From the IMG/VR virus record IMGVR_UViG_3300025167_000005: DNA of 64,000 nucleotides. One strand, 5' to 3'. Of this stretch, positions 33,751 through 61,742 are shown piece after piece (position 1 is the stretch's first letter; each line of letters begins with the position of its first letter). The position numbers and the translations under genes were made by a program. Below the pieces are notes generated by a model, which saw only the letters and a list, made by a program, of their open reading frames with translations, was not told the DNA's origin and searched no databases. Origin of the DNA: an uncultured virus (IMG/VR IMGVR_UViG_3300025167_000005). Taxonomy: Duplodnaviria; Heunggongvirae; Uroviricota; Caudoviricetes.

Positions 33751-33754
33751 TAAC

Positions 33755-34902: not shown

Positions 34903-34906
34903 AGGT

Positions 34907-40772: not shown

Positions 40773-40774
40773 AG

Positions 40775-43936: not shown

Positions 43937-43997
43937 GAGATTCTTCTGGTCCAGGCAGGCCATAAGCCATTGGTCGATGTTGTTGAACCCTTGCTAA

Positions 43998-44030
43998 AGG
44001 TTTATAAGGGACGAAGGCCATAGTAGAAGT
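43998..44030 (+). promoter_or_regulatory. Class-II promoter
   Basis: GGTTTATAAGGGACGAAGGCCATAGTAGAAGT-ATG. Confidence 0.7.
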
Positions 44031-44636: not shown

Positions 44637-44680
44637 GGCCGACCATCGGTTACCTGTTTGCCAAAACGCTCTGGCAGTTG

Positions 44681-46769: not shown

Positions 46770-46930
46770 TCATCGGCGGAGCAATGTTCTTTATGCCCTC
46801 GTAACTCGCCCTACTACATGGTCTGGGTTCCCAAGACTATTACCGCGAAAAACATGGACGTGTCGGTTCGTTTGAACTAACCTCGTTGCTCTGGTCAACC
46901 TTTAAATAGGTCCGGTCCGTTGGATGGGAC

Positions 46931-47344
46931 ATGATGTGGCCCTGGAGCAAGAAGAAACTGAAATCCATCGTTGTCGAACAGAAGCCCATTGACGACATCC
47001 AGGCGGCTTTGGACAACGCCGCTGAGAGGGCCGCAGAAGAAGAAGTTCAGTCCAGAACCATGAGAGCCTGGGGCACGGTCAGCGGGAAGCACGTTGTAGT
47101 TACCTTGACAATTGGTGAGGCGTGGCATTACACGGAGTTGGGAAGTTACAGTAACCCGTGTTGGGAAGGTATTATCACTGTGAACAAAAAGGTAACCGGG
47201 AGGTATACTTTCGAGTTCGACAAGTACGACCGGGTTCAGCGTCTTGCGAAGTTCGATGAGGCCCGGGCCTGGTTCAAGGAGCAGGTGTCTCGTTATCCGG
47301 AACTTCAAAGTCCGGGATGGGACGAGGTCAAGCACTCGGTCTAA
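46931..47344 (+). CDS. Hypothetical protein
   Basis: TATA CCTTTAAATAG upstream; converges on the tagged array. Confidence 0.7.
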   Translation: MMWPWSKKKLKSIVVEQKPIDDIQAALDNAAERAAEEEVQSRTMRAWGTVSGKHVVVTLTIGEAWHYTELGSYSNPCWEGIITVNKKVTGRYTFEFDKYDRVQRLAKFDEARAWFKEQVSRYPELQSPGWDEVKHSV

Positions 47345-47766
47345 GGCCGGATGGCCTGCAAGTCTTCTGGTAGCTCACTGGCGTCTGCGTAGACCCATCG
47401 CGTGGGCAGGTTTGCGGCCTTCTTTCTGGCGTACAAGATGACCGGGACCTCGGCAATGCCCAGCCGTTTCGCGGCGCTGGCGCGGTGGCGGCCTTCCTGG
47501 CTCATGATGCGACCATCCTCCACGTCGATTTCCAGGAAAAGCGGGTCTATCTCCAGACCCTTTCGCATGCGCTTCATCAGGTGTCCTATCTGGACCAGGT
47601 CCTCTCCGACCCAATGCTCTTCGTCGCCTTCGACTACTCCGACCAGGCGCAGGTACTTGTCCGGGTTCATCCAGACCAGCTTCTGGGACTCGGGATGGTA
47701 TTTGAACAGTTCTGGGGCCTTGGCTGGGACGAATCGACGGCGCAAGTGACGGCGGACCCGAATCAT
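47341..47766 (-). CDS. ParB/Srx-like domain protein with N-terminal Arg tag
   Basis: MIRVRRHLRRR; IDPLFL..EGRHRASAAKRLG..VPV. Confidence 0.8.
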   Translation of the reverse strand: MIRVRRHLRRRFVPAKAPELFKYHPESQKLVWMNPDKYLRLVGVVEGDEEHWVGEDLVQIGHLMKRMRKGLEIDPLFLEIDVEDGRIMSQEGRHRASAAKRLGIAEVPVILYARKKAANLPTRWVYADASELPEDLQAIRP

Positions 47767-48341
47767 GCAGGCCGCCTCTCTGCGAGCCAGTCGAGGAAGT
47801 CCGTGACGGATTTTGGATGTTTTCCGATGAAAGAGTAAGCCCATGGAGCACTTGCATGAGTTGCGTGAATCATGTTGTCGATGGCGATTATCCTTTTGGG
47901 AAAGGACATGCTTTTTCTGGCCGAATGAATATGGTCGATGGCGGTGAGAAGGTCTCGGTCTGGAGGAACTTCTTCAAAGTCTCCAGGGCCAATCATGTCT
48001 CCGTACTGGATATCATATTGGTCTGCGAGAGTATCTACCTGACGCAGGTTAAACGTCCTGATGCGACGAGCCACATTCAAAGCAGCGGTCAGTTCTGCTC
48101 TGGCCAATAGTTTGGATTCGACTTCTTCCAGGAGGTCCAAGTCCTCTATCCCGGAGGCATAATGAGTGTAAAGCCTTGTAATCTCGCTCTGAGAGACCTT
48201 GGGAACTTCTGTAGGATGGGGAGGAGACCGCAGGATGGATTCGGCCGCCTTCCATGGGTCCCAGAGTCCTCCGCTGTCTATGTCGATTGACTGGACGTGT
48301 GTCTTCCTCCGTCTTAGGTGTCTCCGGACGTGAACGGTCAC
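47763..48341 (-). CDS. Tagged hypothetical protein; paralog of 53378
   Basis: MTVHVRRHLRRRK; DLLEEVESKL.ARAE and AID..H..H shared with 53378. Confidence 0.8.
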   Translation of the reverse strand: MTVHVRRHLRRRKTHVQSIDIDSGGLWDPWKAAESILRSPPHPTEVPKVSQSEITRLYTHYASGIEDLDLLEEVESKLLARAELTAALNVARRIRTFNLRQVDTLADQYDIQYGDMIGPGDFEEVPPDRDLLTAIDHIHSARKSMSFPKRIIAIDNMIHATHASAPWAYSFIGKHPKSVTDFLDWLAERRPA

Positions 48342-48907
48342 AGATTTCTCCTTATCATGACAGGGCCCAAATGCGCAGCCAGCCCAGAGCGACCAATCAG
48401 CTCCTTGGCAAGAGCAGGGTCATTCCGGGCAACGAACATGGCGAGTCCTTTCATCTGTTCCGCGAGTTCGGTTGCCTGAGGGTCCTCGTTATGGATGTTC
48501 AGGAGATATTCCAACGTCTCGATAGCGCTCTTCCTGTCTGTTCTTCTGTATTGGACCCACGCTTTGTCAACCTTTCTTCCAAGGATGGTATGCTTGTCTT
48601 GTGTGAGGAAGGCAAAGACCGCGTCCTCGTCTGGAATCAGGCAAGTTTCGTCCACGGTTACCTCGAAAACCTCTCCAGGAATCTGCCGATATCGTCCCGT
48701 CCTGTCCCGTCTCGATTCCGTGGCATAGAATTGGGCGGTCTGGAGGTCTGTAGTTATGTAAACAGCGTCGGCGCGAGGCACGTCCTGGTGGAAGCGTGTT
48801 ACTTGACCTGGAAGTATTTTGCCTATTTTCTGGATTCGTTTTACGCTCTGCGGAGGAGCGCCATGAAACCACTTTCGTCTCAGATGTCTCCGGACGTGAA
48901 CGGTCAT
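48338..48907 (-). CDS. ADP-ribosyltransferase-like (H-Y clade) protein with N-terminal Arg tag
   Basis: WFHGA..AVYITT..AQFYA..VFEV..PDED. Confidence 0.7.
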   Translation of the reverse strand: MTVHVRRHLRRKWFHGAPPQSVKRIQKIGKILPGQVTRFHQDVPRADAVYITTDLQTAQFYATESRRDRTGRYRQIPGEVFEVTVDETCLIPDEDAVFAFLTQDKHTILGRKVDKAWVQYRRTDRKSAIETLEYLLNIHNEDPQATELAEQMKGLAMFVARNDPALAKELIGRSGLAAHLGPVMIRRNL

Positions 48908-49035
48908 CGGTTTCCTCCTGAAAGGTCGGAGGTTACGTACTCGTCCAGTTGTCTCTGAAGTTCATTGATAGCCCGGACCAGGGCTTCCGTCCTGTTTGGC
49001 TTCCCGTGGACTACCGAGACTGTAGCGACTCCCAT
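48904..49035 (-). CDS. Small hypothetical protein
   Basis: Coupled on both sides. Confidence 0.5.
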   Translation of the reverse strand: MGVATVSVVHGKPNRTEALVRAINELQRQLDEYVTSDLSGGNR

Positions 49036-49208
49036 CACCGGCTTGCCTCCAGCAACGAGGCGGGTAACGGGTCCTGGATGGGAAACCCGCACTGGGAGCA
49101 CACGCTTCCCGTCCGGCTGTAGCGGAAGGCCGGGTTCCCGCAGTTGCCGCAGCAGAGGCGCGTCGTCCCATTGGCCTGGACGTGTTGCTCGATGGGGATG
49201 ACGGTCAT
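49035..49208 (-). CDS. Small Zn-ribbon protein
   Basis: CCGNCG..CSQCG. Confidence 0.55.
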   Translation of the reverse strand: MTVIPIEQHVQANGTTRLCCGNCGNPAFRYSRTGSVCSQCGFPIQDPLPASLLEASR

Positions 49209-49969
49209 GGGTCTCTTTCCTGCTTGATGTCCTTTGCAAACTCCTTGCTCCATCCGAGGTCCTCTATCCGCGGAGGCACATTGACGTAGTCAGACCAGTG
49301 TATCAACGTCTCTCCGATGCCGACCAGCTCGTCTGCGGAAGGCCTGTAGATGAACTCTCCCTCGCTCGAAGGGATGGATATCGTAGGCCCGCCTCCGTAG
49401 AACAATGGGTCGTTTCCCCCAAGGACGACTCCGGCGGTACGATATTGAGGTGGGATGGAGTCCACGTCCACCAGGACATTTTTGCGCTTTGGCTTGAACA
49501 CCAGGTAATACCCTGACATGAAGGACAGCTCGTGGGCGAACTTCTTGGCAATGGAAACGCGATTGCTTGTGCTTACCATGTCTTGGCCAAGAATCTTCGT
49601 CATGGCATTTCGAAGAGGACTAAAGTCAATCTGCCCGGAATCAAGCTCCCGAGGCCTGTCTTCTCCCCGGTAGTAGAAATTGGCAACCCCCTTGTACAGG
49701 TACTCTGGCATCTTCCTCGGGCCAAAGTACTTTATCAGCGGCGCAAGGTCCTGGACCGTCAGTCCGTGCTCGATGTCTCCCCGTGTCCACCGGATGACTT
49801 TTTGGATGGCCTTCTCCACGGCGTCCCGTCCGAACTCCTCTACAGCCAGGGCCATCTTTTCTTCCCCGGTGTAGGACTTCTTTCCAGGTGATGGCAAGTT
49901 GACGACCTTTCCCCACCCAGGCAAGACAATGGTGCGACGCCTTAGGTGCTTCCGGACGTGGACGGTCAT
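49205..49969 (-). CDS. ADP-ribosyltransferase-like (R-S-E clade pattern) protein with N-terminal Arg tag
   Basis: MTVHVRKHLRRR; LYKGV, VSTS, SEGEF. Confidence 0.65.
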   Translation of the reverse strand: MTVHVRKHLRRRTIVLPGWGKVVNLPSPGKKSYTGEEKMALAVEEFGRDAVEKAIQKVIRWTRGDIEHGLTVQDLAPLIKYFGPRKMPEYLYKGVANFYYRGEDRPRELDSGQIDFSPLRNAMTKILGQDMVSTSNRVSIAKKFAHELSFMSGYYLVFKPKRKNVLVDVDSIPPQYRTAGVVLGGNDPLFYGGGPTISIPSSEGEFIYRPSADELVGIGETLIHWSDYVNVPPRIEDLGWSKEFAKDIKQERDP

Positions 49970-50337
49970 CGGCGTCTCCGGTAGGAGCGAACAGCCACAA
50001 ATCTTTGTCGTCGGCGAGGTTCTGCATAGGGGTCGCCCAAGTGTCGCTTGCCACAGGAGCGACAAACAGGACACGACTTGAAGAGAGGAAGGTCCATCCA
50101 GTTGTCTACTCCGTCCGGGGTTTCTGCATCATAGTGTTTACCCAGATATTCTACCCATATGTGGTAGGGAATCTCGGGCCAGTCTGTTTCGTACTCTTCG
50201 GATACATGAACGACAGAGCCCGGTAAAAGTTCGTACAGGCGGTCAGCAAACTCGTCGCATCGTCCATTGTTGATACCTTCTGGTGACTCTTTGAATTGAG
50301 TGCGAACATAAACCACGGCAGCATGTGGATGCATCAT
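49966..50337 (-). CDS. Papain-like C-H-D protein with C-terminal Arg tag
   Basis: INNGRCDEFA, YHIWVE, HYDAE; ends VAVRSYRRRR. Confidence 0.72.
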   Translation of the reverse strand: MMHPHAAVVYVRTQFKESPEGINNGRCDEFADRLYELLPGSVVHVSEEYETDWPEIPYHIWVEYLGKHYDAETPDGVDNWMDLPLFKSCPVCRSCGKRHLGDPYAEPRRRQRFVAVRSYRRRR

Positions 50338-50897
50338 CGACGCCTCCGGTGAGAGCCAACGTGGACCCGACGGCGCATCGGACCTTTGGCCTTGTAACCG
50401 CGGGCCGTCTTCTCGATTTTTTCGGGGAACTTCCTGTACAGGGAGTCCCAGAGGGCCTCAGCATCACGCGACCTTGGTTTGATGGAGAGAAGGCTCTTGC
50501 CATACGAATGAGCGTCGTTAACCGCGAACCGGTAGAGGAATGTCCCCAGTCCCTTTCTCTCCCAACCATTGGCGACTTGGGCACTGCCAATGACCCAGGT
50601 AGACTCGTCCTCAATATAAATGGAAAGCATTCCCACGACCATGTATTCTTTTTCGAATTCCGCAAGCAGGAGATACAGCCAGTGCCGGTCCGTTGCATAC
50701 CCGTGCTCGGGCGTTCTGACCACGAATACCTTATGGTAGAGTCCGGGTCTGGAAGGAGAGACGACGGAGATGAATTGGTCGGAAAGTATCGGTTTGGTTT
50801 CTTCCTTGGTCAACATTTTCCACGTACTGCCCATGACAATTTTTTCCCAGCGCGTCTCGTGATGCGGCATACTTGGAATCGGGTTCTCGTCGGTCAT
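50334..50897 (-). CDS. GNAT-like protein, copy 1, C-terminal Arg tag
   Basis: VANGWERKGLGTFLY (motif A-like), SRDAEALW; ends VHVGSHRRRR. Confidence 0.75.
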   Translation of the reverse strand: MTDENPIPSMPHHETRWEKIVMGSTWKMLTKEETKPILSDQFISVVSPSRPGLYHKVFVVRTPEHGYATDRHWLYLLLAEFEKEYMVVGMLSIYIEDESTWVIGSAQVANGWERKGLGTFLYRFAVNDAHSYGKSLLSIKPRSRDAEALWDSLYRKFPEKIEKTARGYKAKGPMRRRVHVGSHRRRR

Positions 50898-51604
50898 CGT
50901 CTCCTCCGGTGGGCTTTGACACGGCATTGCCTTCGTCTCCGGTAAGACCTGACGTTGACCTGGGCTCTGCGGAACAGTCGATTCTCAGCCGTAAAGATGG
51001 CTTGGCGCTTCGTCCGGTCGAACTTGTACGCGCCTCGAACGGGCAGCGAACCGAGGTGAGATATGTTGGCTCCCCTCCTTATCATATCGATTTTCAGCCA
51101 GTCCGGCAGGTGCTTTAGAAGTCGCTTTCCAATGTGGGACAGCCAGATTGCTTCTCCATCCTTTGCGCGCCAAAGCTGTCTTTCTGTAAGATAGTGCGTA
51201 TACCCCCGCAGTTGAGCACGGAAGGCCTGGTCACTGTCAAGGGATTTGAAGACGTGAGTATCGTTAAGGGCATCGTACATCATGTCGCCCACGCTGTCTT
51301 CGTCCGGTTGGATATCCACAAAGTCTTGGCCATCGACCAGGAAGACATAGCCATGCCTGCCCGTGGAAAATCCTCTGACGACATCGGGTCCTGGGCAGAG
51401 AATGCCTCCCATTGCATATATCGCGGCTTCCTGCTCGGTCCTCGCTACATAGACCCTTCCTTTTATCGGAGACTGGAACGCTTTTCCCGGGTCTGCCCGG
51501 GGACGGATGTATCTATCCTTGAGAATGGCTTCTCCGGCCTCCTCGACGCAGGTTGCGTGATAGTAGGTCTTGGACCGAATGTCTTCTGGAATCTCGGAGA
51601 CCAT
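50894..51604 (-). CDS. ADP-ribosyltransferase-like protein with double C-terminal Arg tag
   Basis: YYHAT..GRVYVA..AIYA..PDED; ends VNVRSYRRRRQCRVKAHRRRR. Confidence 0.7.
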   Translation of the reverse strand: MVSEIPEDIRSKTYYHATCVEEAGEAILKDRYIRPRADPGKAFQSPIKGRVYVARTEQEAAIYAMGGILCPGPDVVRGFSTGRHGYVFLVDGQDFVDIQPDEDSVGDMMYDALNDTHVFKSLDSDQAFRAQLRGYTHYLTERQLWRAKDGEAIWLSHIGKRLLKHLPDWLKIDMIRRGANISHLGSLPVRGAYKFDRTKRQAIFTAENRLFRRAQVNVRSYRRRRQCRVKAHRRRR

Positions 51605-52362
51605 CAGCGTTTCCTCCGGTAAGAGCTGACATGCACCGGCCTGCGTCTCACGGGCTTCCCGGCCCTGCCGGGGACGGCGTCTCCGGACACCATGGGGCGG
51701 GCGACCGGGGGGAGCGGGGCCAGACCGGCATCCCTCCGCATGGCGTTGATGATGCCCGAGATTCCAGACATCAACCCGGCGACCTCTTCCTCGGTCGTCT
51801 TCGCGGTGAATCCGGCCCGACTCAGCGTGTCCACGACCTCTGCGGGGACCTGCGAGGTGTCCACCCGGTTCTCCTCGCGGAGGGTCCTCTCCGCAACGCC
51901 CCAGTAGGCCTGGCGCAGGATTTCCGGGTCGTCCTTGGCCACGGACTCCCTCCAGGCCTTCAACAGGTCTTGCTGGCGATGATAGTTGCTTGTCGTGTCG
52001 TCGGTCAGGACGTGGTATTCTCCGCTCTTCCTGGTGATGAGGACGCTCGGCGGAGCCCTGTCGATGTTCTGGTACATATTGACGACCCGTATCCTGTTCT
52101 CGGTGACTACAGGCGAGGACCTGCCCTCGACGTGCTCCTGGGCCCACTCGACCGCGGCGTCCTTGGTCGGGAAGGTGGTCACGTAGTAGAACTCGACGCC
52201 GCCCACGAACGCATGGTCCCCGTAGACGTAGCCCTCGCGGCGATGCTTCTCCCAGGGGACCACGTTCAGGGGCGTGGATGGGTTGATACGTTCGACCACC
52301 TTTCCGAACCTCTGGGAGAATCCCTTCGGATTTTCGAGGATGCCATGGCGGGAGACGGTCAT
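51604..52362 (-). CDS. Hypothetical protein with C-terminal Arg tag
   Basis: Ends VHVSSYRRKR. Confidence 0.8.
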   Translation of the reverse strand: MTVSRHGILENPKGFSQRFGKVVERINPSTPLNVVPWEKHRREGYVYGDHAFVGGVEFYYVTTFPTKDAAVEWAQEHVEGRSSPVVTENRIRVVNMYQNIDRAPPSVLITRKSGEYHVLTDDTTSNYHRQQDLLKAWRESVAKDDPEILRQAYWGVAERTLREENRVDTSQVPAEVVDTLSRAGFTAKTTEEEVAGLMSGISGIINAMRRDAGLAPLPPVARPMVSGDAVPGRAGKPVRRRPVHVSSYRRKR

Positions 52363-52811
52363 CGATGTCTTCTCCGATAGGAGTTGATGTGAACCCGCAC
52401 ACCGGTCCAGGCCTGACGCCTAACGTCGCGCGACCTCAGAGTCTTTAAGACTGTTCCAGGGAGTCTGGCGTGCTTGTCTGGATGCGTTTCAGGAGCATAA
52501 TAATAGTGCTCTTCGTCCGCTGGGAACCAAACCTGGGGAAAGTCCTTGCCGAACTGGTCAGCAGTGATATCAACGATTCGTCCATCGTCAAGTTCGACCC
52601 AAGTATGCCCCCAATCCCGATACCGCTTTTTTGAAGGCCCTGCCCAGTCTCCGTAGAGGACATCGTTGTCGATACCAGAGGCACTAAGCCGTTGCGAAAG
52701 CAGTTCAGACGCCCAATTACACAGTCCTCTCGTCTTGCCGCCGCACTCTCGTTCGACAATCTTGCGGACCGTCGCGGCGATGGACCTTATCTGTTCATCT
52801 TTCTTGGTCAT
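52359..52811 (-). CDS. Papain-like C-H-D protein; paralog of 23535
   Basis: GLCNWAS, GHTWVE, VDITADQF; ends VHINSYRRRHR. Confidence 0.78.
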   Translation of the reverse strand: MTKKDEQIRSIAATVRKIVERECGGKTRGLCNWASELLSQRLSASGIDNDVLYGDWAGPSKKRYRDWGHTWVELDDGRIVDITADQFGKDFPQVWFPADEEHYYYAPETHPDKHARLPGTVLKTLRSRDVRRQAWTGVRVHINSYRRRHR

Positions 52812-53044
52812 CGGGTCCGCCTCCTGTGAGAACGGACCTGGACGTGTTTCGGACGACGCAAGAACTCGCGCATGCGGGTGGGATATTGTCTGCCAGAAGT
52901 CATTGCCATGGCCAACTGGAGTGTCCTCTCGGGGTAGGTCACCGCGTCACTGGGCGGACCATGGTTCATCGCAATTTCCTCCGGTGGCCTCGCACGCGGA
53001 CTCCGAGCTTGCAGATATTTAATATCAGCGGCATCAGGCACCAC
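52808..53044 (-). CDS. Small protein with C-terminal Arg tag
   Basis: Ends VQVRSHRRRTR. Confidence 0.6.
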   Translation of the reverse strand: MVPDAADIKYLQARSPRARPPEEIAMNHGPPSDAVTYPERTLQLAMAMTSGRQYPTRMREFLRRPKHVQVRSHRRRTR

Positions 53045-53381
53045 TTCCCGGCGGGCTCGGTCCCCCGGGCAGCTCCTCCCAGGGGTCTTCCTCGTCGTCC
53101 TCGTCGTCCGACTCGGCCCGCTTCCGCTCGATGTAGGTCGCCAGGCCTTCCCAGGTCGCTCCGAATGCGGCCTTCGGGAAGTGGGGGCTTTGGGCGAGCA
53201 GGGCCAGAGCCAGGTCGAGGAGCACGGCCCGGACGGCCTTCTGGAACGGACTGTCTTCGGGCTTGCGCTGGACGCCGCGAATGGCGTCGGCGAGCTGCTT
53301 CTTGAGGGCGGTCTTCTGCTCGGGCGTCAGCACCTCGTACATCTCGTGCTCGTGTACTTCCGAGATGCGCTCTTCGGTCAA
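53034..53381 (-). CDS. Untagged helical protein with acidic tail
   Basis: TTGA coupling; SDDEDDEED. Confidence 0.7.
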   Translation of the reverse strand: MTEERISEVHEHEMYEVLTPEQKTALKKQLADAIRGVQRKPEDSPFQKAVRAVLLDLALALLAQSPHFPKAAFGATWEGLATYIERKRAESDDEDDEEDPWEELPGGPSPPGSGA

Positions 53382-54825: not shown

Positions 54826-54838
54826 CGGCCCACTTCCA

Positions 54839-55399: not shown

Positions 55400-55986
55400 C
55401 GGGATTGCCTCCGATATCTCTTGACATGGACCTTTCGAGGCCTTCGGGACAGGACCGGCAGGGCGGCCCAGGTGCGGTGGGTGATTTCCTCGGGGCGAAT
55501 GTCCATGGGAGGCCGCTCTTCCGTATATCTTCCTGTGGTCTGGATTTTCCCAATGAAACGGCGATAGCGTTCCCGGTCCCATCCGAACCGGGCAGCCTGG
55601 ATAGCTTCCCAGAAGATGGCCCTTTGCTCGGAAGGTCGGTCTACGTGAACACTGTACAGGAACTGTTCCAGAGATATCATTGCTTGCCTTATTGGTTTCA
55701 TAGTCAGGATATCAGCAATATGGTACAACTCGTGGGCCATGACGACATAGAGTTCTTCTGCATCCAACCCGAGGCGACGCACCAAGTCCTTATTGACCGC
55801 GAAAAACGGACCGCCGGGAGTCAGATAAGTCACGCTCACGGAGTTCTCTTTCGTTTCCTCGATGACAGAGACAGGGAACCCCTTCAACAGATGCCGGACG
55901 GGCAGGACATCGAGGTTCACGAACTCTTCCAGGTTTACGGGCTTCTGAGACAGTTTTCCCCAGTTCACCCAAAGTTCCTCGGTCAT
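55396..55986 (-). CDS. HExxH metallopeptidase-like family member, C-tag
   Basis: MAHELYH..EQRAIFWEAIQAARFGW; ends VHVKRYRRQSR. Confidence 0.8.
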   Translation of the reverse strand: MTEELWVNWGKLSQKPVNLEEFVNLDVLPVRHLLKGFPVSVIEETKENSVSVTYLTPGGPFFAVNKDLVRRLGLDAEELYVVMAHELYHIADILTMKPIRQAMISLEQFLYSVHVDRPSEQRAIFWEAIQAARFGWDRERYRRFIGKIQTTGRYTEERPPMDIRPEEITHRTWAALPVLSRRPRKVHVKRYRRQSR

Positions 55987-56555
55987 CGGGTCCTCCGATG
56001 AGTGCGGACGCGGATTGCCCGTCGGGGACGACGGGTGAGCGGGGGCAGAAAAGATGCAAACTCCCTCTTGTCCTCTTCCGAGACAGATATCTTCCTTTCT
56101 CCTTTATACACCCCTTGGACAAAGGTCATCACTCTCCCGCGGGTCCAGCCAAATCTTGCAGCCTGGAGTCCGGCCCAATAATTGGCCTCCTGCTCTCCTG
56201 GCTGGTCTCCGTGGGCAGCCGCATGGGGAAACAGATGCTCTACAGCCTTTCCTCTGAAAGGATGGTATATATGTGTCAGCTCATGGGCCAGGAGCACATA
56301 GAATGCTTCTGGGTCATCCAATGCCGCGTCGAGGACATCAATCCTAATCAATATTTTGGCCGTCTTACCCTGGCCAACTACCCAGGCGGCCTGGGAATGC
56401 GGCGAGGACGCAGCCTGGACAGGAATGTCTTCAACGCGGACTCCGGTTCTCTTTTTAACCTCGTGCCGGTTGACAAGAAGGTTGACATCCACCAGGTCCT
56501 TCAGGAGAACAACCGTTCCGACCCGGAAGCCGATTTCTTTGATGCGCGCGGTCAT
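55983..56555 (-). CDS. HExxH metallopeptidase-like family member, C-tag
   Basis: LAHELTH..EQEANYWAGLQAARFGW; ends IRVRTHRRTR. Confidence 0.8.
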   Translation of the reverse strand: MTARIKEIGFRVGTVVLLKDLVDVNLLVNRHEVKKRTGVRVEDIPVQAASSPHSQAAWVVGQGKTAKILIRIDVLDAALDDPEAFYVLLAHELTHIYHPFRGKAVEHLFPHAAAHGDQPGEQEANYWAGLQAARFGWTRGRVMTFVQGVYKGERKISVSEEDKREFASFLPPLTRRPRRAIRVRTHRRTR

Positions 56556-57103
56556 GCCCGCCTCCTGTGATGGGTCCTGACCTGCACGACACGCCTCCGA
56601 GGCGGCAGCGACGGGAAGGCAGGCCAGGACTCCTGCTCTCGTATCCTTCGAGTACGGAACCCCAGCTTCTTGATAAATGCTCGGTGGGTCTCTCTGTTCC
56701 ATCCCATGCGCGCTGCCTGGAGGCCTTCCCAGTATATGGCATCTTGTTCACATCGTTTATCATGATGGTATACATAACCCTTGCCCTCGTGAGATTGGCA
56801 TAGAGCAGGCAATTGCCAGAAGTGTGCGGTTTCATGAGCTATCAGAACATAGACTTCTTCATCTGATAGCTTGTGGATGTTGGTAAATATTATGACCTTC
56901 TCGTTTATGCGGTCACCGGCGAGGGCATTGGCAACACTGCCCGGGACCAGGTTAAAACCTACCTTGGGCATGAGCCTCCGTTTCCTCAATTCGTGAACGG
57001 TCACCAGCTGGTCAACATCAATCAGGTCGGACAGGGGCTGAGGCTTTATGTTGTAGATGTCAGAAGCCAGCTTGCGGTTCACGGGAAAATCCTCGGAGGT
57101 CAT
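56552..57103 (-). CDS. HExxH metallopeptidase-like family member, C-tag
   Basis: IAHETAH..EQDAIYWEGLQAARMGW; ends VQVRTHHRRRA. Confidence 0.8.
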   Translation of the reverse strand: MTSEDFPVNRKLASDIYNIKPQPLSDLIDVDQLVTVHELRKRRLMPKVGFNLVPGSVANALAGDRINEKVIIFTNIHKLSDEEVYVLIAHETAHFWQLPALCQSHEGKGYVYHHDKRCEQDAIYWEGLQAARMGWNRETHRAFIKKLGFRTRRIREQESWPAFPSLPPRRRVVQVRTHHRRRA

Positions 57104-57651
57104 GCTCTCCGCCTCCGGTGAGAGCCAACATGAACCCGACGACGCATCGGACCTCTGGCCTCGTAACCGCGGAAGGTCTTCAGTACCTTTCCGGGGAACT
57201 TTCTATTCAAAGAGTTCCAGAGGGCTTCGGCTTCCCGCGACCTTGGATGAATGGAATGAAGGACCTTGCCATACGAATGGGCGTCATTGACCGCGAATCG
57301 GTAAAGGAATGTCCCCAATCCCCTTCTGTTCCAACCATCAGCGACTTGGGAACCACCGATGACCCAAGTGGATTCGTCTTCGATGTAGACAGAAAGCATT
57401 CCTACGACGACCATATATTTCCCCTCGTACTCTGCAAGCAGGAGATACAGCCAGTGCCTGTCCGTCGCATACCCGTGCTCTGGCGTCTTGGCCACGAATA
57501 CCTTGTGATAAAGCCCGGAAGGAGCGACAACAGAAACGAACTGGTCAGAGAGCACTGGTTCAGCCTCTTTTGTAGGCACCCACCTACCCATGACACTCTC
57601 TTCTTCCCAGAACGTCTTGCGATGTGGCATGCCGGGAATCGTGTCGGTCAT
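57100..57651 (-). CDS. GNAT-like protein, copy 3, C-tag
   Basis: WNRRGLGTFLY; ends VHVGSHRRRRA. Confidence 0.75.
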   Translation of the reverse strand: MTDTIPGMPHRKTFWEEESVMGRWVPTKEAEPVLSDQFVSVVAPSGLYHKVFVAKTPEHGYATDRHWLYLLLAEYEGKYMVVVGMLSVYIEDESTWVIGGSQVADGWNRRGLGTFLYRFAVNDAHSYGKVLHSIHPRSREAEALWNSLNRKFPGKVLKTFRGYEARGPMRRRVHVGSHRRRRA

Positions 57652-57737
57652 CGGCGCCTCCGATGGGACCCAACGCGAACCGGTCGTCGGGACAAGACGG
57701 GCAAGGCGGCCCGGTCCACCCGGGGCAGATATTTCAC
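57648..57737 (-). pseudogene. Tag-only remnant (29 aa) of an HExxH-family gene
   Basis: MKYLPRVDRAALPVLSRRPVRVGSHRRRR; AALPVLSRRP matches the C-terminus of 55396-55986. Confidence 0.6.
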
Positions 57738-58300
57738 TGGCCATCCCCCGGCTCGACGTTACGGTAGTCCAGGATTTTGACCGTGAACAGCCTCTCGGCC
57801 GCCGACCGTTCCTCGACCGTCAGGTCCGCGGCGTCCAGCAGGCCTTCCCAGTTCCGTTCCAGGTCCTGGCGGGTTCCGATGTACGTGTTCATGCCCACGT
57901 CGTCACTGTGCTGCGCCAGGACGCCGCCGTCCGAGGTGACGACCATGTCATCGATGGCCGGGTCGGTCCACTTCTTGTCGAGCACGTACCCCAGGATGGC
58001 CGCCATCTTCGGACTCATGCCCGGGAACCGGCCCGGGTACAGCTTCTTCTGGAGGTTCTCCAGGTCCTCCGGGCCCATGAGAGCGCCGACGACCGTCGCC
58101 TTGATGGCCCTGTCCTCGGCCTTGGCCTTCGCCACAAAATCTGCAAGACGCCGTTCTTCGTGCCGCTTTTCTTCATATTCCTTCTTGTGCCTGGCGAGGT
58201 CGTCCGAAAGCGGGTAGTCTGCCTTCGTCTTCTTTACGAAGTCATCGAGCGTGACGTGTTTGCGGCGGCGCAAATGAAGACGAACTTTCACTGGCTTCAA
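57734..58300 (-). CDS. Hypothetical protein with N-terminal Arg tag
   Basis: TTG start, KPVKVRLHLRRRK. Confidence 0.8.
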   Translation of the reverse strand: MKPVKVRLHLRRRKHVTLDDFVKKTKADYPLSDDLARHKKEYEEKRHEERRLADFVAKAKAEDRAIKATVVGALMGPEDLENLQKKLYPGRFPGMSPKMAAILGYVLDKKWTDPAIDDMVVTSDGGVLAQHSDDVGMNTYIGTRQDLERNWEGLLDAADLTVEERSAAERLFTVKILDYRNVEPGDGQ

Positions 58301-58328
58301 CGATGAGGCCTCCCGTCTCGGACCAGTT

Positions 58329-58901
58329 TCATGGTGACCGCCTCCGATGCGCTTGCACCCGGACCGGTCGCCTGGACATCCAGGACCGGGCAGCCCAGCC
58401 TCTTCGGACGACCTCTTCTGGAATGGTAGAAGAACGTAGTATGCCGCGTCCTATAGAGTACACCCGTCCCACGTACCGACGATATCTTTCCTGAGTCCAC
58501 CCGAATTTGGAAGCCTGCATCGACTCCCAAAAGATGGCCCGCTGCTCGGAAGGGCGGTCAGAGTGTATGGGGATTTCCATTCGCTCGTCGATGACCCCCC
58601 ACACAGAAGTCTTTCCTGTTCTCACTTCAACTACGTGAGAAATTTCATGGGCCAGCATCACGTAGACCTCTTCCGGGTCGAGTTTGGAAAGATATTCGAC
58701 ATTGACCTGGAGCGTGGTATCTCCAAGAGAAGTCAGTAACGTTGCTATCGACGCGGTTTCCAAGGGAGCGTTGACTATGGTAAGTAGCGAACCATGTTTG
58801 GCCAGAAGACTCCGGTTGACGAGGACCTTAACATCGAAAACCTCGGAGATATTTGCTTGTCTCCAGCGCAAGGCCGTCCAATTCGTCTTCAGCTCGGTCA
58901 T
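58329..58901 (-). CDS. HExxH metallopeptidase-like family member, C-tag
   Basis: LAHEISH..EQRAIFWESMQASKFGW; ends VRVQAHRRRSP. Confidence 0.8.
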   Translation of the reverse strand: MTELKTNWTALRWRQANISEVFDVKVLVNRSLLAKHGSLLTIVNAPLETASIATLLTSLGDTTLQVNVEYLSKLDPEEVYVMLAHEISHVVEVRTGKTSVWGVIDERMEIPIHSDRPSEQRAIFWESMQASKFGWTQERYRRYVGRVYSIGRGILRSSTIPEEVVRRGWAARSWMSRRPVRVQAHRRRSP

Positions 58902-59365
58902 CGGCGTCTCCGATATCCGTGGACCCGCACACCGGCCCTGCGCTGACGGAACCGCTGGAGTTCCTCCGAGAACCCCGAGGGCCGAAGCAGGTAGACCGGG
59001 TCATCGATACTCGCCAGCTTGCCCAGGGCAACGGGGCCGATGCTGCGAAGACGCTTGCCGTGCTCGTCGGTCAAGTCAATGTAGGACTCATAGTCTACTC
59101 CGAGATGCAAGACATCACTCTGAAGAAAATCCACGATACGAGACCAATGCCGTCGGATGTCGTCTGCCTGACCCTCGACGTAACCACTCGACACGCGGAC
59201 CCAGTGATTGGCGAGCAGGGTGACCGAGGGCGTCATGTCGTGTATCCAGGGAGTCCCATAGCCACGGATTCGCACTGCCTGCTCAGCCTGGTCGAGATGG
59301 GTCCCCTCGCGCCCGGCGACCAGGACCTCGTCCTCGCCCTCAGGAGAAATCCAGACGCGGACCAT
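58898..59365 (-). CDS. Hypothetical protein, C-tag; related to 23041
   Basis: WISPEGE..H..WVRV; ends VRVHGYRRRR. Confidence 0.75.
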   Translation of the reverse strand: MVRVWISPEGEDEVLVAGREGTHLDQAEQAVRIRGYGTPWIHDMTPSVTLLANHWVRVSSGYVEGQADDIRRHWSRIVDFLQSDVLHLGVDYESYIDLTDEHGKRLRSIGPVALGKLASIDDPVYLLRPSGFSEELQRFRQRRAGVRVHGYRRRR

Positions 59366-59736
59366 CAGGCGACCTCCATATCTATCCAAAACACGTCTAC
59401 GGGAATGTCGTTCCACCGCCATCCATCAACAGGACGGTACGCCATCCGGTTGTTGTGCCCGATTATTTCAACGTACTTTGAACCCATGAAATCCAGTCCC
59501 ATCGTCTCCAACCGGTCGGTCATGGCCTGCCTGTCTCCGCGGGCTACAATGTCAATGTCGTGCTCGGAGAACTCACGAGCGGTCAGACTGCCATAAAGGG
59601 CATACTTCACGCCGGGCACCGGACCAATCTCGCGGAGCAACCGGGCTGCATCGTCCCGGGTGATATGTGTGCTCCGCCCGGGAGGAATCTCGAACCCCTT
59701 CCTGCGTCGGAGGTGGCGATGGACCTGGACGGTCAT
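59365..59736 (-). CDS. Minimal nucleotidyltransferase (Pol-beta fold) with N-terminal Arg tag
   Basis: MTVQVHRHLRRR; LYGSL..EHDIDI..VDVF. Confidence 0.8.
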   Translation of the reverse strand: MTVQVHRHLRRRKGFEIPPGRSTHITRDDAARLLREIGPVPGVKYALYGSLTAREFSEHDIDIVARGDRQAMTDRLETMGLDFMGSKYVEIIGHNNRMAYRPVDGWRWNDIPVDVFWIDMEVA

Positions 59737-59870
59737 CGGTGTCTCCGCAGGAAGATGGAGAAAACGACCATGATGACCCGGACACCCATGGGCTCAGGAC
59801 CCCGGGCCCTTGCAGCGGCGATTTCAACGGGGTTTGGGATTTCCAATGGAAGATAGGTAGGAGCTATCAT
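59733..59870 (-). CDS. Small coupling ORF ending LRRHR
   Basis: ATGA overlaps at both ends. Confidence 0.45.
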   Translation of the reverse strand: MIAPTYLPLEIPNPVEIAAARARGPEPMGVRVIMVVFSIFLRRHR

Positions 59871-60646
59871 GCCCGCCTCCGATAGTTCCTGACAAAAACA
59901 CTCCGACGCCGACCGAACTGTACCGGCTCTCCACCCTCGAACGCCTTCCGGACCTCTTTCTCCCCCTTGAACAGCTTCTCCATGAACTTCTGGCCCTCCC
60001 ATACGGCCAGGCTCGCAAGCCTGGAAGCTTCCTGCGGGTCCGGGGTTTCCACCCACTTATCGGTATCGGCATTATAGAGAACGATTCGGGAAGGCGGAGG
60101 ATTGAGAAGGAGAGGCAGGTTCTCGGCAAGAGCAAGGTCGAAGTCGATTCTGGCAAAAGCCTTGGCTTCGTCGTAGGCCTTCCCAGCGGGAGCCATGGCC
60201 TCATCGCGGGCCTTCCGGTCGGGAGCCGTGGCCTCGTTATAGGCTTTCTGGGCAGGAGCCATGGCCTCATCGCGGGCCTCGTTATAGGCTTTCTGGGCAG
60301 GAGCCGTGGCCTTGTCGAGGGCCCTCCAGGCGGAAGCCGTGGCCTCAACGAGGGCCTTCCAGGCGGAAGCCGTGGCCTCAACGTAAGCCTTCCGGGCGGG
60401 AGCCGTGGCCTCAACGAAGGCCTTCCAGGCAGAATTCGTGGCCTCAACGTAAGCCTTCCGGACGGGAGTTGTAGCCTCGTAGTAGACCTTCTGTGTTCGG
60501 TTTTCAATCTCCCGAGAGCGCTCCGGCCATAGGATAACGACCGTGCCGAGGCCCTGTCTGCGCCATCCCTTGGGCGTCTTCGGGTAGTTGTCGTCTTTCC
60601 ACGAACCGAAGTCGGCGTCCTGAGGGAGCTTGGAGGACCAGAGCAT
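59867..60646 (-). CDS. Hendecad-repeat protein, C-tag; paralog of 11461
   Basis: Near-identical N- and C-domains; EATA(P/S)A(W/R)KA(Y/F)V repeats. Confidence 0.85.
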   Translation of the reverse strand: MLWSSKLPQDADFGSWKDDNYPKTPKGWRRQGLGTVVILWPERSREIENRTQKVYYEATTPVRKAYVEATNSAWKAFVEATAPARKAYVEATASAWKALVEATASAWRALDKATAPAQKAYNEARDEAMAPAQKAYNEATAPDRKARDEAMAPAGKAYDEAKAFARIDFDLALAENLPLLLNPPPSRIVLYNADTDKWVETPDPQEASRLASLAVWEGQKFMEKLFKGEKEVRKAFEGGEPVQFGRRRSVFVRNYRRRA

Positions 60647-61119
60647 CACCGATGCCTCCGATAGATTCCAACACGAACCGGTCTTCGCCGATTGTTCGCC
60701 GTACGAGCAGCACGAAGACGTGGATAGTAGGTCGTCGCAGCACTCAACGCAAACTGCTTCAAGTCTTCGGGATGAGATTCATATCGGTCTGGCCTGCTCG
60801 GATAAACACGAATTTGTCCTACCGGAATAGTCTTGTCGAACTGGCATTCCGTGGGGTCGATGACGATTCCTTCCTTCGTCTCAAGCCAGCAGTGAAATGA
60901 AAACCACCTGTCGTCGTCATCATAGGTCCCGCAAACAACTCGGGTCCAGATTCCCTTGCTCCTCAGGAAGTCCTTAAGAACGAAGTGACTGGCCGTGTAA
61001 CAGGCAGCCTTAAGCCGCTTCGTTGTGTCGATACCCCCCTCATACGGCCACTTTCTCTCCAACAGTTCCAGGAACTCTTTCGGAGACGGTAACACCGCCT
61101 CGACATCGGAAACGTTCAT
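60646..61119 (-). CDS. Papain-like C-H-D protein, C-tag
   Basis: AACYTAS, FHCWLE, IDPTECQF; ends VRVGIYRRHR. Confidence 0.75.
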   Translation of the reverse strand: MNVSDVEAVLPSPKEFLELLERKWPYEGGIDTTKRLKAACYTASHFVLKDFLRSKGIWTRVVCGTYDDDDRWFSFHCWLETKEGIVIDPTECQFDKTIPVGQIRVYPSRPDRYESHPEDLKQFALSAATTYYPRLRAARTANNRRRPVRVGIYRRHR

Positions 61120-61616
61120 CGGGACCTCCGGTAAGCGCTAACGTGTATTGGTCTCCTCCGAGTCTCCGCGGGACGGCGGAAGCCAAACCGCTCTGAATGA
61201 GCCTTGAACACGGTGCCCACGGCGAAATCCCCCATCAGGCCGTTGCTGTCGTTGAAGACATGCCGTGCAGCATGACGATGGTGGTCCATAGTGTCGTGCG
61301 CCAGGTCCTGTGTGAGTTGCTTCAAAAAGAACTCGTGGCCCCCATACTTCTCGTGGTAATCCGCAAGTCCTCTCTTCAATTCTGCAAGATACTCCCTGGC
61401 CGACTTCAGGCGTTCCAGGAAGAATGCCATGTCCGGGTCCGGGCCGAATCCCCCGATGATGTGGACTTTGCCATCAGCTCCGACCTCAAATCGTTTCGAC
61501 GGAGCGTCCTTGGTAAGAGTACTGGCCAGCAGAGCCAGGTCGTTGAGGACCAGGTTCAAGTTCTGCCAGATGCTGAGCACGTTGCTCGCATCGCGCAACT
61601 GCTGGCCTCCAGTCAT
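61116..61616 (-). CDS. Hypothetical protein, C-tag
   Basis: Ends IHVSAYRRSR. Confidence 0.78.
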   Translation of the reverse strand: MTGGQQLRDASNVLSIWQNLNLVLNDLALLASTLTKDAPSKRFEVGADGKVHIIGGFGPDPDMAFFLERLKSAREYLAELKRGLADYHEKYGGHEFFLKQLTQDLAHDTMDHHRHAARHVFNDSNGLMGDFAVGTVFKAHSERFGFRRPAETRRRPIHVSAYRRSR

Positions 61617-61687
61617 CGGCGCCTCCGCCTCGGCAGGAACCAGAACCGACGAAGGCGGGCTCCCGCTCGGATGTTGATGTCCTTCAT
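61613..61687 (-). CDS. Putative 24-aa Arg-rich leader peptide of the array
   Basis: MKDINIRAGARLRRFWFLPRRRRR; ATGA overlap with the first cargo gene. Confidence 0.45.
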   Translation of the reverse strand: MKDINIRAGARLRRFWFLPRRRRR

Positions 61688-61720
61688 CTGCTCGGACACA
61701 AGCAGAATGAGGTCGGACCA

Positions 61721-61731
61721 GTATATAAAGG
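61721..61731 (-). promoter_or_regulatory. TATA box heading the tagged array
   Basis: CCTTTATATAC on the minus strand, in the only intergenic gap upstream of the array. Confidence 0.6.
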
Positions 61732-61742
61732 CTTCCTTCTGG

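Follow-up and report, generated by a model that had tools for sequence, protein, structure and literature searches.

We suggest that a large archaeal virus-like element carries, on the minus strand of the DNA analysed here (a window of 64 kb), a polycistronic unit which is driven from one promoter and coupled in translation, a view that is supported by the arrangement of its genes. As far as they can be assigned, mostly on weak matches, its products are small enzymes that make up a diversifying set rich in paralogs, accompanied by many proteins without a family. We read the short peptide which recurs on these proteins as an address label that would bring them to a common destination or partner. 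The whole of this reading, that is, a coupled operon of diversifying enzymes with a common address peptide, is in our view somewhat better than an even bet.

Re-annotation gives a chain of 33 open reading frames over 14,347 bp, from the first ATG at 61687 to the last stop codon at 47341-47343 (Table 1). Neighbouring frames overlap at all 32 junctions, 29 times by 4 nt (ATGA, GTGA or TTGA) and three times by 1 nt (TGATG), and there is not a single intergenic base. The start codons are ATG (26), GTG (5) and TTG (2); the stop codon is TGA in 32 cases and TAG only in ORF 33, the last gene. Such a series of 32 overlapping junctions with one peptide on 26 of the 33 products is far beyond chance. The sequence-only reading had described a gapless overlapping array of about 14.3 kb with 32 ORFs, 25 of them tagged. 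The array and the tagging stand, but the counts had to be revised to 33 and 26. An 11-nt overlap assumed for a start at ATG 57744 is not needed, since ORF 11 links directly to the GNAT start at 57651. This start agrees with the 183-aa database protein P0002 and with the alignment of the paralogs. A 71-aa frame at 54606-54821 was rejected as spurious; after the GNAT gene at 54839 the chain continues through the bridge ORF 17 to the GTG at 54825. We also found the Arg-rich leader ORF at the head of the array and the interleaving of paralogs, as they had been described; the paralogs are four HExxH proteins, three GNATs and the pair at 47763/53378.

Table 1. Promoter, open reading frames and bounding gene of the array (C-tag and N-tag, tag at the respective terminus)
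Feature	Position	Strand	Description
Archaeal TATA box	61722..61729	-	TTTATATA; CC and purine-rich BRE-like stretch upstream
ORF 1	61613..61687	-	24 aa; without SD (leader short or absent); Arg run at end
ORF 2	61116..61616	-	166 aa; C-tag; no family match
ORF 3	60646..61119	-	157 aa; C-tag; weak transglutaminase-like core
ORF 4	59867..60649	-	260 aa; C-tag; internal 33-nt (11-aa) tandem repeats
ORF 5	59733..59870	-	45 aa; degenerate tag-like end; possible remnant
ORF 6	59365..59736	-	123 aa; N-tag; no family match
ORF 7	58898..59365	-	155 aa; C-tag; 1-nt overlap (TGATG)
ORF 8	58329..58901	-	190 aa; C-tag; HExxH zincin-like metalloprotease paralog
ORF 9	58297..58332	-	11-aa bridge ORF from ORF 8 to TTG start of ORF 10
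ORF 10	57734..58300	-	188 aa; N-tag; TTG start
ORF 11	57648..57737	-	29 aa; tagged C-terminal remnant of HExxH metalloprotease paralog
ORF 12	57100..57651	-	183 aa; C-tag; GNAT acetyltransferase
ORF 13	56552..57103	-	183 aa; C-tag; HExxH paralog
ORF 14	55983..56555	-	190 aa; C-tag; HExxH paralog
ORF 15	55396..55986	-	196 aa; C-tag; HExxH paralog; used for structure model
ORF 16	54839..55399	-	186 aa; C-tag; GNAT
ORF 17	54822..54842	-	6-aa bridge ORF
ORF 18	54004..54825	-	273 aa; GTG start; N-tag; no family
ORF 19	53378..54007	-	209 aa; N-tag; paralog of ORF 32 (35% identity, E 1e-16)
ORF 20	53034..53381	-	115 aa; untagged; pI 4.6; acidic tail
ORF 21	52966..53034	-	22 aa; hardly more than tag; remnant or bridge
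ORF 22	52808..52969	-	53 aa; C-tag
ORF 23	52359..52811	-	150 aa; C-tag; weak YunG-like match (E 0.01, below cut-off)
ORF 24	51604..52362	-	252 aa; C-tag; no family
ORF 25	50894..51604	-	236 aa; double C-tag; 1-nt overlap
ORF 26	50334..50897	-	187 aa; C-tag; GNAT
ORF 27	49966..50337	-	123 aa; C-tag; weak phage YunG-like match (E 0.06)
ORF 28	49205..49969	-	254 aa; N-tag
ORF 29	49035..49208	-	57 aa; untagged; Cys4 zinc-ribbon-like (weak)
ORF 30	48904..49038	-	44 aa; untagged
ORF 31	48338..48907	-	189 aa; N-tag
ORF 32	47763..48341	-	192 aa; N-tag; paralog of ORF 19
ORF 33	47341..47766	-	141 aa; N-tag; ParB-like nuclease (phrog_26387, E 1.2e-4)
Convergent gene	46931..47344	+	own TATA (46901); stop overlaps array stop; bounds array

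The TATA octamer lies 35 nt upstream of the ATG of ORF 1 and reaches 22.7 bits with the position weight matrix; the window contains 15 exact matches to TTTA[AT]ATA, this one included. Inside the array the best match on the sense strand attains 7.2 bits, compared with 15.3-25.5 bits at the 15 consensus sites. The earlier suggestion of a single operon is thus in line with one promoter at the head, the lack of intergenic DNA and the lack of a consensus-like internal promoter, a support which comes from sequence only. Four runs of T5-T6 on the sense strand could attenuate archaeal transcription within the array. The 5′ leader contains a 5-bp inverted repeat.

Shine-Dalgarno motifs precede nearly all overlapped starts: GGAGG at 21 of the 32 junctions, 5-8 nt from the start, GGAG at five, GAGG at one, weaker motifs at four and none at one. 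The last codons of ORF 1 contain the GGAGG of ORF 2, and ORF 1 is probably a leader for ribosome loading. We suggest that translation proceeds as follows. Ribosomes would load at the nearly leaderless ORF 1. Termination and reinitiation at the NTGA and TGATG overlaps could then pass them from gene to gene, assisted by the GGAGG within the preceding gene, and the tiny bridge ORFs and gene remnants might hold the coupled chain together. The same junction types with an upstream Shine-Dalgarno motif occur in termination-reinitiation coupling, as portrayed in two reports (PMC6728339, PMC10666635). The array differs in its scale of 32 coupled junctions in series, in its bridge micro-ORFs and in the systematic encoding of the Shine-Dalgarno motif by an Arg-Arg pair that also belongs to a protein tag.

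The enzyme classes in the array are zincin/M48-like metalloproteases, GNATs, a ParB-like nuclease and, weakly, a transglutaminase-like protein (ORF 3; PF13471, E 3.6e-5, 24.1 bits, under the cut-off of 26) and YunG-like proteins (ORFs 23 and 27). Only the GNAT assignment exceeds a Pfam cut-off: the three paralogs score 27.9, 24.9 and 26.8 bits against PF00583 (gathering cut-off 20.7), the 27.9 bits of ORF 12 having been computed on its longer reading 57100-57744. The HExxH set in the window comprises the four array paralogs and 34790-35464, and H85, E86, H89 and E120 do not vary across 31 sequences. ORF 13 reaches 18.7 bits against Pfam M48, below the cut-off of 20.3. With the AF2 model of ORF 15 (pLDDT 88.3) Foldseek gave no match at E <= 1e-3; the best was BepA (E 6.8e-3), and the next were further M48, minigluzincin and SprT chains. 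Structure entries of the atlas for the HExxH proteins point to M48, U49 and SprT with TM 0.40-0.54, under the bar of the tool for naming a family. By eye, a G-S...D-x-D pattern in ORF 6 resembles minimal nucleotidyltransferases, which makes such an activity possible. ORF 4 has a paralog at 11461-12360 on the plus strand (62% identity). The N-terminus of ORF 2 weakly resembles the last ORF of the related contig L002.

It had also been proposed that the array behaves like an expandable cassette array. On the evolutionary scale, and only there, this seems justified: the identity that the three GNAT genes share breaks off at the gene junction, remnants and bridge ORFs are present, and related contigs carry the same families in a different order. 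Rapid flux does not agree with the data: cassette-like turnover is not seen within the sampled population, and in four other runs, from soil or sediment, contigs have the same array sequence, the only structural variant being one joint inside a tandem-repeat gene. Should the DNA of tag and junction then be mainly a module for swapping, duplicating and deleting cassettes? Besides the paralog identity that stops at the junction and the changed order in relatives, a [metalloprotease-GNAT] module appears to be duplicated with one copy truncated, and in ORF 16 a partial N-tag and unrelated sequence stand in place of the first ~27 residues, which leaves a recombination scar with a chimeric 5′ end that begins inside the N-tag. 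However, near-identity of the common DNA extends over no more than about 17 nt, contigs of the four other runs have an identical array, no recombinase adjoins it, and the conservation at the peptide level would be left unexplained. We give this explanation next to no credence; recombination is probably incidental to this DNA rather than its role.

Like integron arrays, the array holds varied promoter-less genes in one direction behind a single promoter, here the head TATA, with modular gain and loss. Unlike them it has neither IntI, attI, attC nor intergenic DNA, and its genes are chained in translation and tagged with a peptide. Scans of the window ORFs with Pfam, NCBIfam and PHROGs found no integrase, IntI included; their sole recombinase is a serine resolvase at 13322-14038, 33 kb distant. 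As had been noted before, attC sites are absent between the array genes, and none could follow the cassettes because all 32 junctions overlap without intergenic bases. No structured recombination site is present at the array.

The tag is a motif of 12-15 residues, (R-R-P)-V-x-V-x-x-[H/Y]-(x)-R-R-R. A six-frame pattern search together with inspection of the ORF termini located 18 C-terminal and eight N-terminal copies in the array, and at least 12 further tagged genes lie elsewhere in the window, also at operon ends. The two Arg codons after H/Y, CGG-AGG, contain the Shine-Dalgarno motif of the next gene, so that the Arg-rich end of the tag is partly dictated by the embedded motif. The tag could then be a mere by-product of coupling, with CGG-AGG as the cheapest way to place GGAGG before ATGA and the peptide without function. 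Indeed CGG follows H/Y in 15 of 17 C-tags, with AGG or AGA next, and the junction consensus is conserved among relatives. Yet upstream of the Shine-Dalgarno motif the V-x-V-x-x-[H/Y] core varies synonymously: its Val codons are mixed (GTT, GTC, GTG), and H/Y is encoded in the 17 C-tags by TAC (4), TAT (5), CAT (4) and CAC (4). Eight tags are N-terminal, others stand on the last genes of units (35393-35464, 20918-20950), and of the 17 further places in the window where genes overlap, 15 have no tag and encode GGAGG by other codons. Moreover, among remote homologues of the HExxH family in the library, 38 of 45 representatives carry the tag at their end, even at E 1e-5. These observations largely refute the by-product, which we regard as very improbable.

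The conservation of the tag as a peptide is shown by this codon variation, the N-terminal copies, the retention in homologues, the untagged junctions and a nuclease that has switched ends: the ParB-like protein is tagged N-terminally here and C-terminally in its L002 ortholog (42% identity, E 4e-23). Another switch is seen in the HExxH homologue P0030, where the tag is N-terminal. Few columns of alignment A2 are invariant or almost so, and those of the tag belong to them, alongside the HExxH site; tag and junction code are both kept in relatives with a GC content of 0.60-0.67. The model of ORF 15 predicts a complete zincin-like domain with the tag attached to it as a coil. Double duty as Arg codons and ribosome-binding site is confined to the junction code CGG-AGG-...-NTGA; the remainder of the tag is under selection at the peptide level.

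The setting, to judge from the gene content, is archaeal and virus-like, with virus status putative. The window encodes a TFB (E 2.7e-20), a LonB-like protease, a dNMP kinase, NT5C, a ligase, an Mre11-like exonuclease and a PolB whose nearest records are haloarchaeal tailed viruses at ~25% identity. In the viral contig collection three queries (GNAT, PolB and the HExxH alignment) found no relatives. The array genes are plausibly cargo.

A first, tentative possibility for the address label is that it loads the proteins into a particle of the element, together with the DNA, for delivery into the next cell. In T4 the capsid-targeting sequence (CTS) sits at the N-terminus and the prohead protease cuts it, and the targeting motif of encapsulins is hydrophobic, of the Gly/Ser/Leu type. 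The array tag departs from the former in that two thirds of its array copies are C-terminal, it is polybasic, the host is archaeal, and packaging and cleavage are putative here; it departs from the latter in its motif, in a far larger number of cargo genes and in that no shell gene was found in the window. The likenesses are nevertheless evident. The CTS of T-even phages, according to PMC3012670, is a short conserved terminal peptide and the sole common part of diverse, fast-evolving accessory and counter-defence proteins, and like our tag a portable terminal address on otherwise unrelated proteins of a large virus or virus-like element. The C-terminal targeting peptides of encapsulins, according to PMC7925596, are likewise short and send unrelated cargo enzymes into a virus-capsid-like shell. 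The type IV secretion signal of Agrobacterium, as PMC8525350 describes it, citing Vergunst 2005, is hydrophilic, net-positive, Arg-rich, terminal, found on unrelated proteins and transferable to foreign ones; it is bacterial, only C-terminal and loosely defined, whereas the array tag is strict and also N-terminal. A secretion ATPase or coupling protein was not found in the 64-kb window. Against packaging speaks that most tags are C-terminal in contrast to the T4 signal, that about 40 tagged proteins in the window are a large cargo list for one particle, and that the N-tagged J-domain protein (33274-33750) fits a location inside the cell no less well than one in a virion.

This J-domain protein would fit an intracellular docking site, and it is conceivable, again only tentatively, that the tag is an Arg-rich nucleic-acid-binding motif which tethers the proteins inside the cell to RNA or DNA of host or element (tRNA, chromatin, the element's genome or transcripts) or to the ribosome, without packaging or delivery. 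The tag is polybasic, has a short beta-strand-like V-x-V core and occurs at either terminus. In other settings GNATs, nucleases, nucleotidyltransferases and nucleotidases can have nucleic acid or the translation machinery as their target, and the tagged classes would match these, as they include GNAT, nuclease, nucleotidase and a possible nucleotidyltransferase. Furthermore, no particle genes were found: the 64-kb window of the roughly 144.6-kb contig gave no hit to a capsid, portal or terminase gene. Nor were export or receptor genes found in it. On the other hand, the core replication and transcription proteins are untagged, among them such workers on nucleic acid as PolB, ligase and TFB, and so is the Mre11-like exonuclease, while accessory enzymes are tagged; and the strict V-x-V-x-x-[H/Y] spacing with the preceding Pro resembles specific protein recognition more than a basic tail. 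Co-packaging with DNA into a particle is slightly favoured, at most, over this tethering.

The remaining weight falls to partners of another kind, for example a protease, an export machine or a chaperone. Proteases of the element itself might recognise or cleave the tag, which would then serve as a degron or pro-peptide and control when the proteins are active or turned over. The window's five HExxH paralogs and LonB-like S16 protease would suit this, as would the removal of the T4 signal by the prohead protease and the spacer between R-R-P and V-x-V in P0015, P0017 and P0019, which suggests a two-part site. The proteases are themselves tagged, though, cleavage is wholly putative, and a degron has no obvious need for strict conservation at both termini. 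We therefore consider a protease signal improbable.

In summary, what deserves most interest in this finding is the tag, which extends beyond the array. It resembles a portable address label of a type that does not seem to have been described before in archaeal mobile elements.

The array is a gapless chain of overlapping ORFs, as is borne out by frame-by-frame analysis of the minus strand, translation of the chain, direct reading of two hard junctions and junction statistics. It extends from an ATG at 61687 to the stop codon at 47341-47343 on the minus strand (14,347 bp). The sequence-only reading had recognized the array and counted 32 ORFs, 25 of them tagged; our recount gives 33 and 26. 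Neighbouring ORFs overlap at all 32 junctions, by 4 nt (NTGA) at 29 and by 1 nt (TGATG) at three, and the stop codon is TGA in 32 ORFs and TAG in the last gene alone. The single overlap of 11 nt that had also been proposed is not needed; it follows if a GNAT gene is made to start at ATG 57744. Alignment of the paralogs and a 183-aa database protein place this start at 57651, and the preceding ORF (57648-57737, 29 aa) is what remains of the C-terminus of a metalloprotease paralog, with its tag. Downstream of the GNAT gene at 54839 a 6-aa bridge ORF is followed by a GTG start at 54825. A 71-aa ORF in a different frame there is spurious. A second bridge ORF is listed in the table.

Within the window the promoter consensus CC-TTTA[AT]ATA is found at 15 sites, typically about 20-35 nt upstream of an ATG (e.g. 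9340+, 24231+, 46901+, 63351- and 61729-). This arrangement is an archaeal BRE/TATA with short or absent leaders. Most units of the window look leaderless or short-leadered, and internal genes use GGAGG. The TATA noticed earlier at the head of the array is indeed a consensus site (61729-61722), located 35 nt 5′ of the first ORF, a 24-aa leader which has no Shine-Dalgarno sequence. Internal promoters, named in the same reading as evidence against a single operon, were not found: with a weight matrix made from the 15 consensus sites, which themselves score 15.3-25.5 bits, the best sense-strand match within the array reaches 7.2 bits. At the 3′ boundary the stop codon is overlapped by a gene that converges from the plus strand and has a TATA of its own at 46901, and 5′ of the array lie three coupled co-directional genes (63213-61743) under a separate promoter at 63351. 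From the consensus promoter at the head, the absence of an internal match and the bounded ends we therefore infer, on good grounds, one transcript for the whole array. As an operon the array is an extreme case of a known kind. Four T5-T6 runs on the sense strand inside the array could attenuate archaeal transcription. The array occurs in eight soil or sediment runs, all of them DNA, with no RNA run among them. A scan for sigma-70 promoters and hairpin terminators is inapplicable to an archaeal element, and its terminator-like sites were about as numerous as in shuffled sequence (15 vs 16.6). Elsewhere in the window, at 26289-26390(+) and 29360-29430(+), two promoters are followed by near-identical 5′ gene segments of about 60 nt, a duplication of promoter and gene start; two TATA boxes lie 26 nt apart at 26289/26315.

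The tag is an Arg-rich terminal peptide of 12-15 aa with the motif (R-R-P)-V-x-V-x-x-[H/Y]-(x)-R-R-R. One copy is present in 26 of the 33 array ORFs, C-terminally in 18 and immediately following the start in eight; one protein has a partial second copy and another a doubled C-terminal copy. The other seven ORFs have no tag: besides the leader and the two bridges these are an acidic 115-aa protein, two small ORFs (57 and 44 aa) and one of 45 aa whose copy is degenerate. At least 12 further tagged genes lie outside the array on both strands of the window (see table). Untagged in the window are the family-B DNA polymerase, ligase, Mre11-like exonuclease, TFIIB-family factor, LonB-like protease and glycosyltransferases. 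The J-domain protein, a tagged Hsp70 co-chaperone, hints at a destination of the tag where chaperones are needed. A second coupled run of four N-tagged genes (31591-33750) is followed, with short gaps, by two C-tagged genes (33755-35464).

Coordinates of the second bridge ORF and of tagged genes outside the array
Feature	Coordinates	Strand	Remark
Second bridge ORF, 11 aa	58297-58332	-	upstream of a TTG-start gene
Tagged region	6842-7409	-	N- or C-tag
Tagged region	10667-12360	+	N- or C-tag
Tagged region	14690-15286	+	N- or C-tag
Tagged region	20903-22612	-	N- or C-tag
Tagged region	31591-35464	+	N- or C-tag
NT5C-type nucleotidase, tagged	20903-21556	-	outside array
J-domain protein, N-tagged	33274-33750	+	DnaJ J-domain E 1.8e-16; DUF7417 E 5e-24
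Fifth HExxH metalloprotease paralog, tagged	34790-35464	+	outside array; last gene of its unit

Could the tag be a mere by-product of the coupling? The DNA at the junctions approximates TAY/CAY-CGG-AGG-CGN-CGA-TGA. Behind H/Y the two Arg codons are CGG-AGG (with CGG at 15 of 17), six bases that include the GGAGG serving the next gene; thus, part of the Arg run has a dual use. Coupling explains the codon choice of these two residues but leaves the peptide itself unexplained. N-terminal tags are unable to act as a downstream ribosome-binding site, and the fifth metalloprotease gene is tagged although it ends its unit. Moreover, at 15 of the 17 other overlapping junctions in the window the upstream gene ends without a tag and GGAGG is provided through other codons. 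Synonymous codons also vary within the tag: both Val positions show a mixture of GTT, GTC and GTG, the four codons TAC, TAT, CAT and CAC are about equally frequent at the H/Y position, and the Arg codons upstream differ as well.

A profile of the five metalloprotease paralogs, the HExxH proteins, was compared with 1.84 billion representative proteins and retrieved 45 proteins in all. The tag is found at the end of 38 of them and N-terminally in one; in two a Cys/His-containing extension of some 30-35 residues comes after it, and four are without a tag by the pattern used, two of these being fragments. In an alignment of 31 sequences the tag columns are among the few (nearly) invariant ones, along with the HExxH site. 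A metagenome scan yielded five contigs, two from the same element and three from relatives with a GC content of 0.60-0.67, in which tagged genes again form overlapping chains and the CGG-AGG...NTGA junction code is kept. The tag can also change its position. The ParB-like nuclease ending the array is N-tagged, and its ortholog on contig L002 (42% identity, E 4e-23) has a C-tag and an untagged start; the NT5C-like nucleotidase and its ortholog on contig L003 (53% identity) both have a C-tag. ORF 15 was modelled with AlphaFold (mean pLDDT 88.3, pTM 0.84), and in the model the tag is a coil added onto a complete domain. From codon variation, portability, conservation and the model combined, the tag emerges as a modular peptide of protein termini that is under selection of its own. 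In the database proteins P0014 and P0022 and in L005:1499-2044(+), on a further contig, an internal tag precedes a conserved extension of about 30-35 aa with a Y-C-x-C-H-R-S-K-like segment, which may be a second module able to follow the tag.

Three GNAT paralogs score above the Pfam cut-off. In the four HExxH paralogs of the array H-E-x-x-H and a downstream Glu are invariant. The fold is weakly nearest to M48, minigluzincin and SprT-type zincins, with M48, U49 and SprT as Atlas structure rows; Foldseek found nothing in the PDB for the HExxH model at E <= 1e-3, the best match being BepA (E 6.8e-3). There are weak hints for transglutaminase-like and YunG-like proteins and for the ParB-like nuclease. 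ORF 6 displays by eye a nucleotidyltransferase-like G-S...D-x-D pattern and has no family match, and the majority of the remaining products are without any family. ORF 4 (59867-60649(-), with the repeats at 60158-60491) and its paralog at 11461-12360(+) contain imperfect 33-nt (11-aa) tandem repeats in a tagged protein.

Paralogs are interleaved in the array, as had been proposed. DNA alignment of the GNAT genes shows that identity stops at the junction, that a metalloprotease-GNAT module appears to have been duplicated with one metalloprotease cut down to the 29-aa remnant, and that the GNAT gene at 54839 has a chimeric 5′ end beginning within an N-tag. An integron array can be dismissed (no IntI, no attC, zero intergenic DNA). 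We also aligned contigs from four further runs to 46800-62200; rare variants are lost from contigs, and none of the pieces listed reaches across the whole array. Of the 32 pieces listed, 30 have no difference to the window, and the two differing ones sit on a GNAT paralog, as cross-mapping would predict. The sole joint, seen in three runs, has 36 other letters in place of 135 nt within the 33-nt repeats of ORF 4, and either a change in repeat number or cross-mapping of the paralog could account for it. The identity of the listed pieces and the lack of a gene-content variant among them argue, though not decisively, against rapid gene flux. The earlier idea of an expandable cassette array is favoured, on an evolutionary scale only, by the ends of GNAT identity and the duplicated module, and finds no gene-content variant in the listed pieces to support it.

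Which type of element carries the array? The window encodes a TFIIB-family factor (NF001658, E 2.7e-20), a LonB-type protease fragment (TIGR00764, E 1.2e-50) and a family-B DNA polymerase whose best matches among sequenced viruses are from haloarchaeal tailed viruses (about 25% identity). Further genes code for an ATP-dependent ligase, an Mre11-like exonuclease, a T4-type dNMP kinase, an HD protein, a serine resolvase, two NT5C nucleotidases and five glycosyltransferases. No capsid, portal, terminase or secretion gene was detected in the 64-kb window. We therefore call it an archaeal virus-like element, which may be a virus. The window has no tRNA gene. Halophily was rejected, since the proteins of the window lack an acidic composition (D+E 12%, K 4.8%, R 9%). 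The nucleotide-metabolism set (NT5C, T4-type dNMP kinase, HD protein) and the five glycosyltransferases, at 5290-6491(+), 7424-9306(+), 28157-30577(+) and 43373-43936(+), may indicate that the DNA is modified or glycosylated, or that surfaces are glycosylated. Immediately downstream of a consensus promoter, 9348-10532(+) specifies an acidic product of 394 aa (pI 4.1), which has a membrane anchor at its N-terminus and Asp-rich repeats of a calcium-binding-like type; further putative surface proteins are encoded at 16231-17976 (with a PKD domain) and at 24267-24959. Two long candidate frames, 40401-41417(-) and 43926-44747(-), consist of a repeat of about 10 aa (G-S-H-G-L-V-V-D-L-P-like) with a weak DUF7161 match and are 62% identical over 78 aa.

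In the protein collection 5-7 contigs carry the same proteins, and the longest measures 144,611 bp. The phage records gave no match in a megablast search with the array or in a tblastn search with the HExxH protein. No relatives of GNAT, PolB or the HExxH alignment were found in the viral contig collection, and none of alignment A1 in the species-representative genome collection. A word-indexed protein search returned the window's own three paralogs only for GNAT, and for the ParB-like nuclease itself and one 119-aa relative. A scan of the genome collection with the degenerate back-translated motif gave at least 121 stretches, nearly all of them single out-of-frame chance matches in high-GC bacteria. 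Among the stretches listed, the sole plausible in-frame match is a 68-aa ORF on a Micrarchaeota MAG contig of 5,476 bp (L010:1784-1990(+)), which has the motif at its start and an acidic tail and adjoins a serine recombinase. The motif scan gives no usable pointer to hosts.

In phages, nanocompartments and secretion systems, many unrelated cargo proteins share a terminal address peptide by which they are handled. To our knowledge, no such peptide is known for archaeal viruses or plasmids. A keyword search of the literature, which is weak evidence, found no description of a comparable archaeal tag, nor did the family libraries used. Judged by sequence features, twin-arginine signals, archaeosortase C-terminal signals and the proteasome HbYX motif do not fit, the tag being without a hydrophobic segment and variable in its last residues. 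The tag would work like known cargo or address peptides, for which encapsulin targeting peptides (PMC7925596) and the C-terminal signal, of net positive charge, on substrates of type IV secretion (PMC8525350) are comparable. However, it differs from them in sequence, in its use of either terminus, in the host domain and in the number of genes marked.

Ribosomes would start on the leader ORF and then be relayed from gene to gene by termination-reinitiation, a process documented at ATGA and TGATG pairs in archaea and bacteria (PMC6728339 and PMC10666635). Bridge ORFs and remnants would be kept in the chain because a break would silence all downstream genes. Less firmly than the relay, we suggest that the tag may send all tagged proteins to one partner. 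On the whole we lean slightly towards reading the tag as an address label. Packaging or delivery as its specific purpose is possible, if doubtful. Equally live is a tag that acts as an Arg-rich nucleic-acid-binding element and tethers its proteins, which we regard as similarly tentative. The full picture, put forward here as a rather unlikely proposal, would be a large archaeal virus or virus-like element with a portable polybasic address code of 12-15 residues that marks about 40% of its genes, 38 or more in 64 kb, for a single destination, e.g. particle loading for co-delivery with the DNA. Much of this tagome would come from a ribosome-relay operon of 33 genes, in which the junction code also supplies codons of the tag, and the code would define a lineage of soil elements absent from the virus and genome collections searched.

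The array would be an extreme natural case of termination-reinitiation, with 32 consecutive coupled junctions and bridge micro-ORFs, in which a single sequence stretch is both ribosome-binding site and part of a protein signal; it offers a test bed for the reach of translational coupling in archaea. A simple sequence rule makes dozens of otherwise unannotatable proteins one class, the tagome, across an uncultivated lineage of soil elements. This opens a route to the receptor, to the prediction of host-interaction effectors of archaeal viruses and possibly to the loading of foreign proteins. If the full picture above holds, archaeal viruses would with this tag have their first known cargo or address signal.
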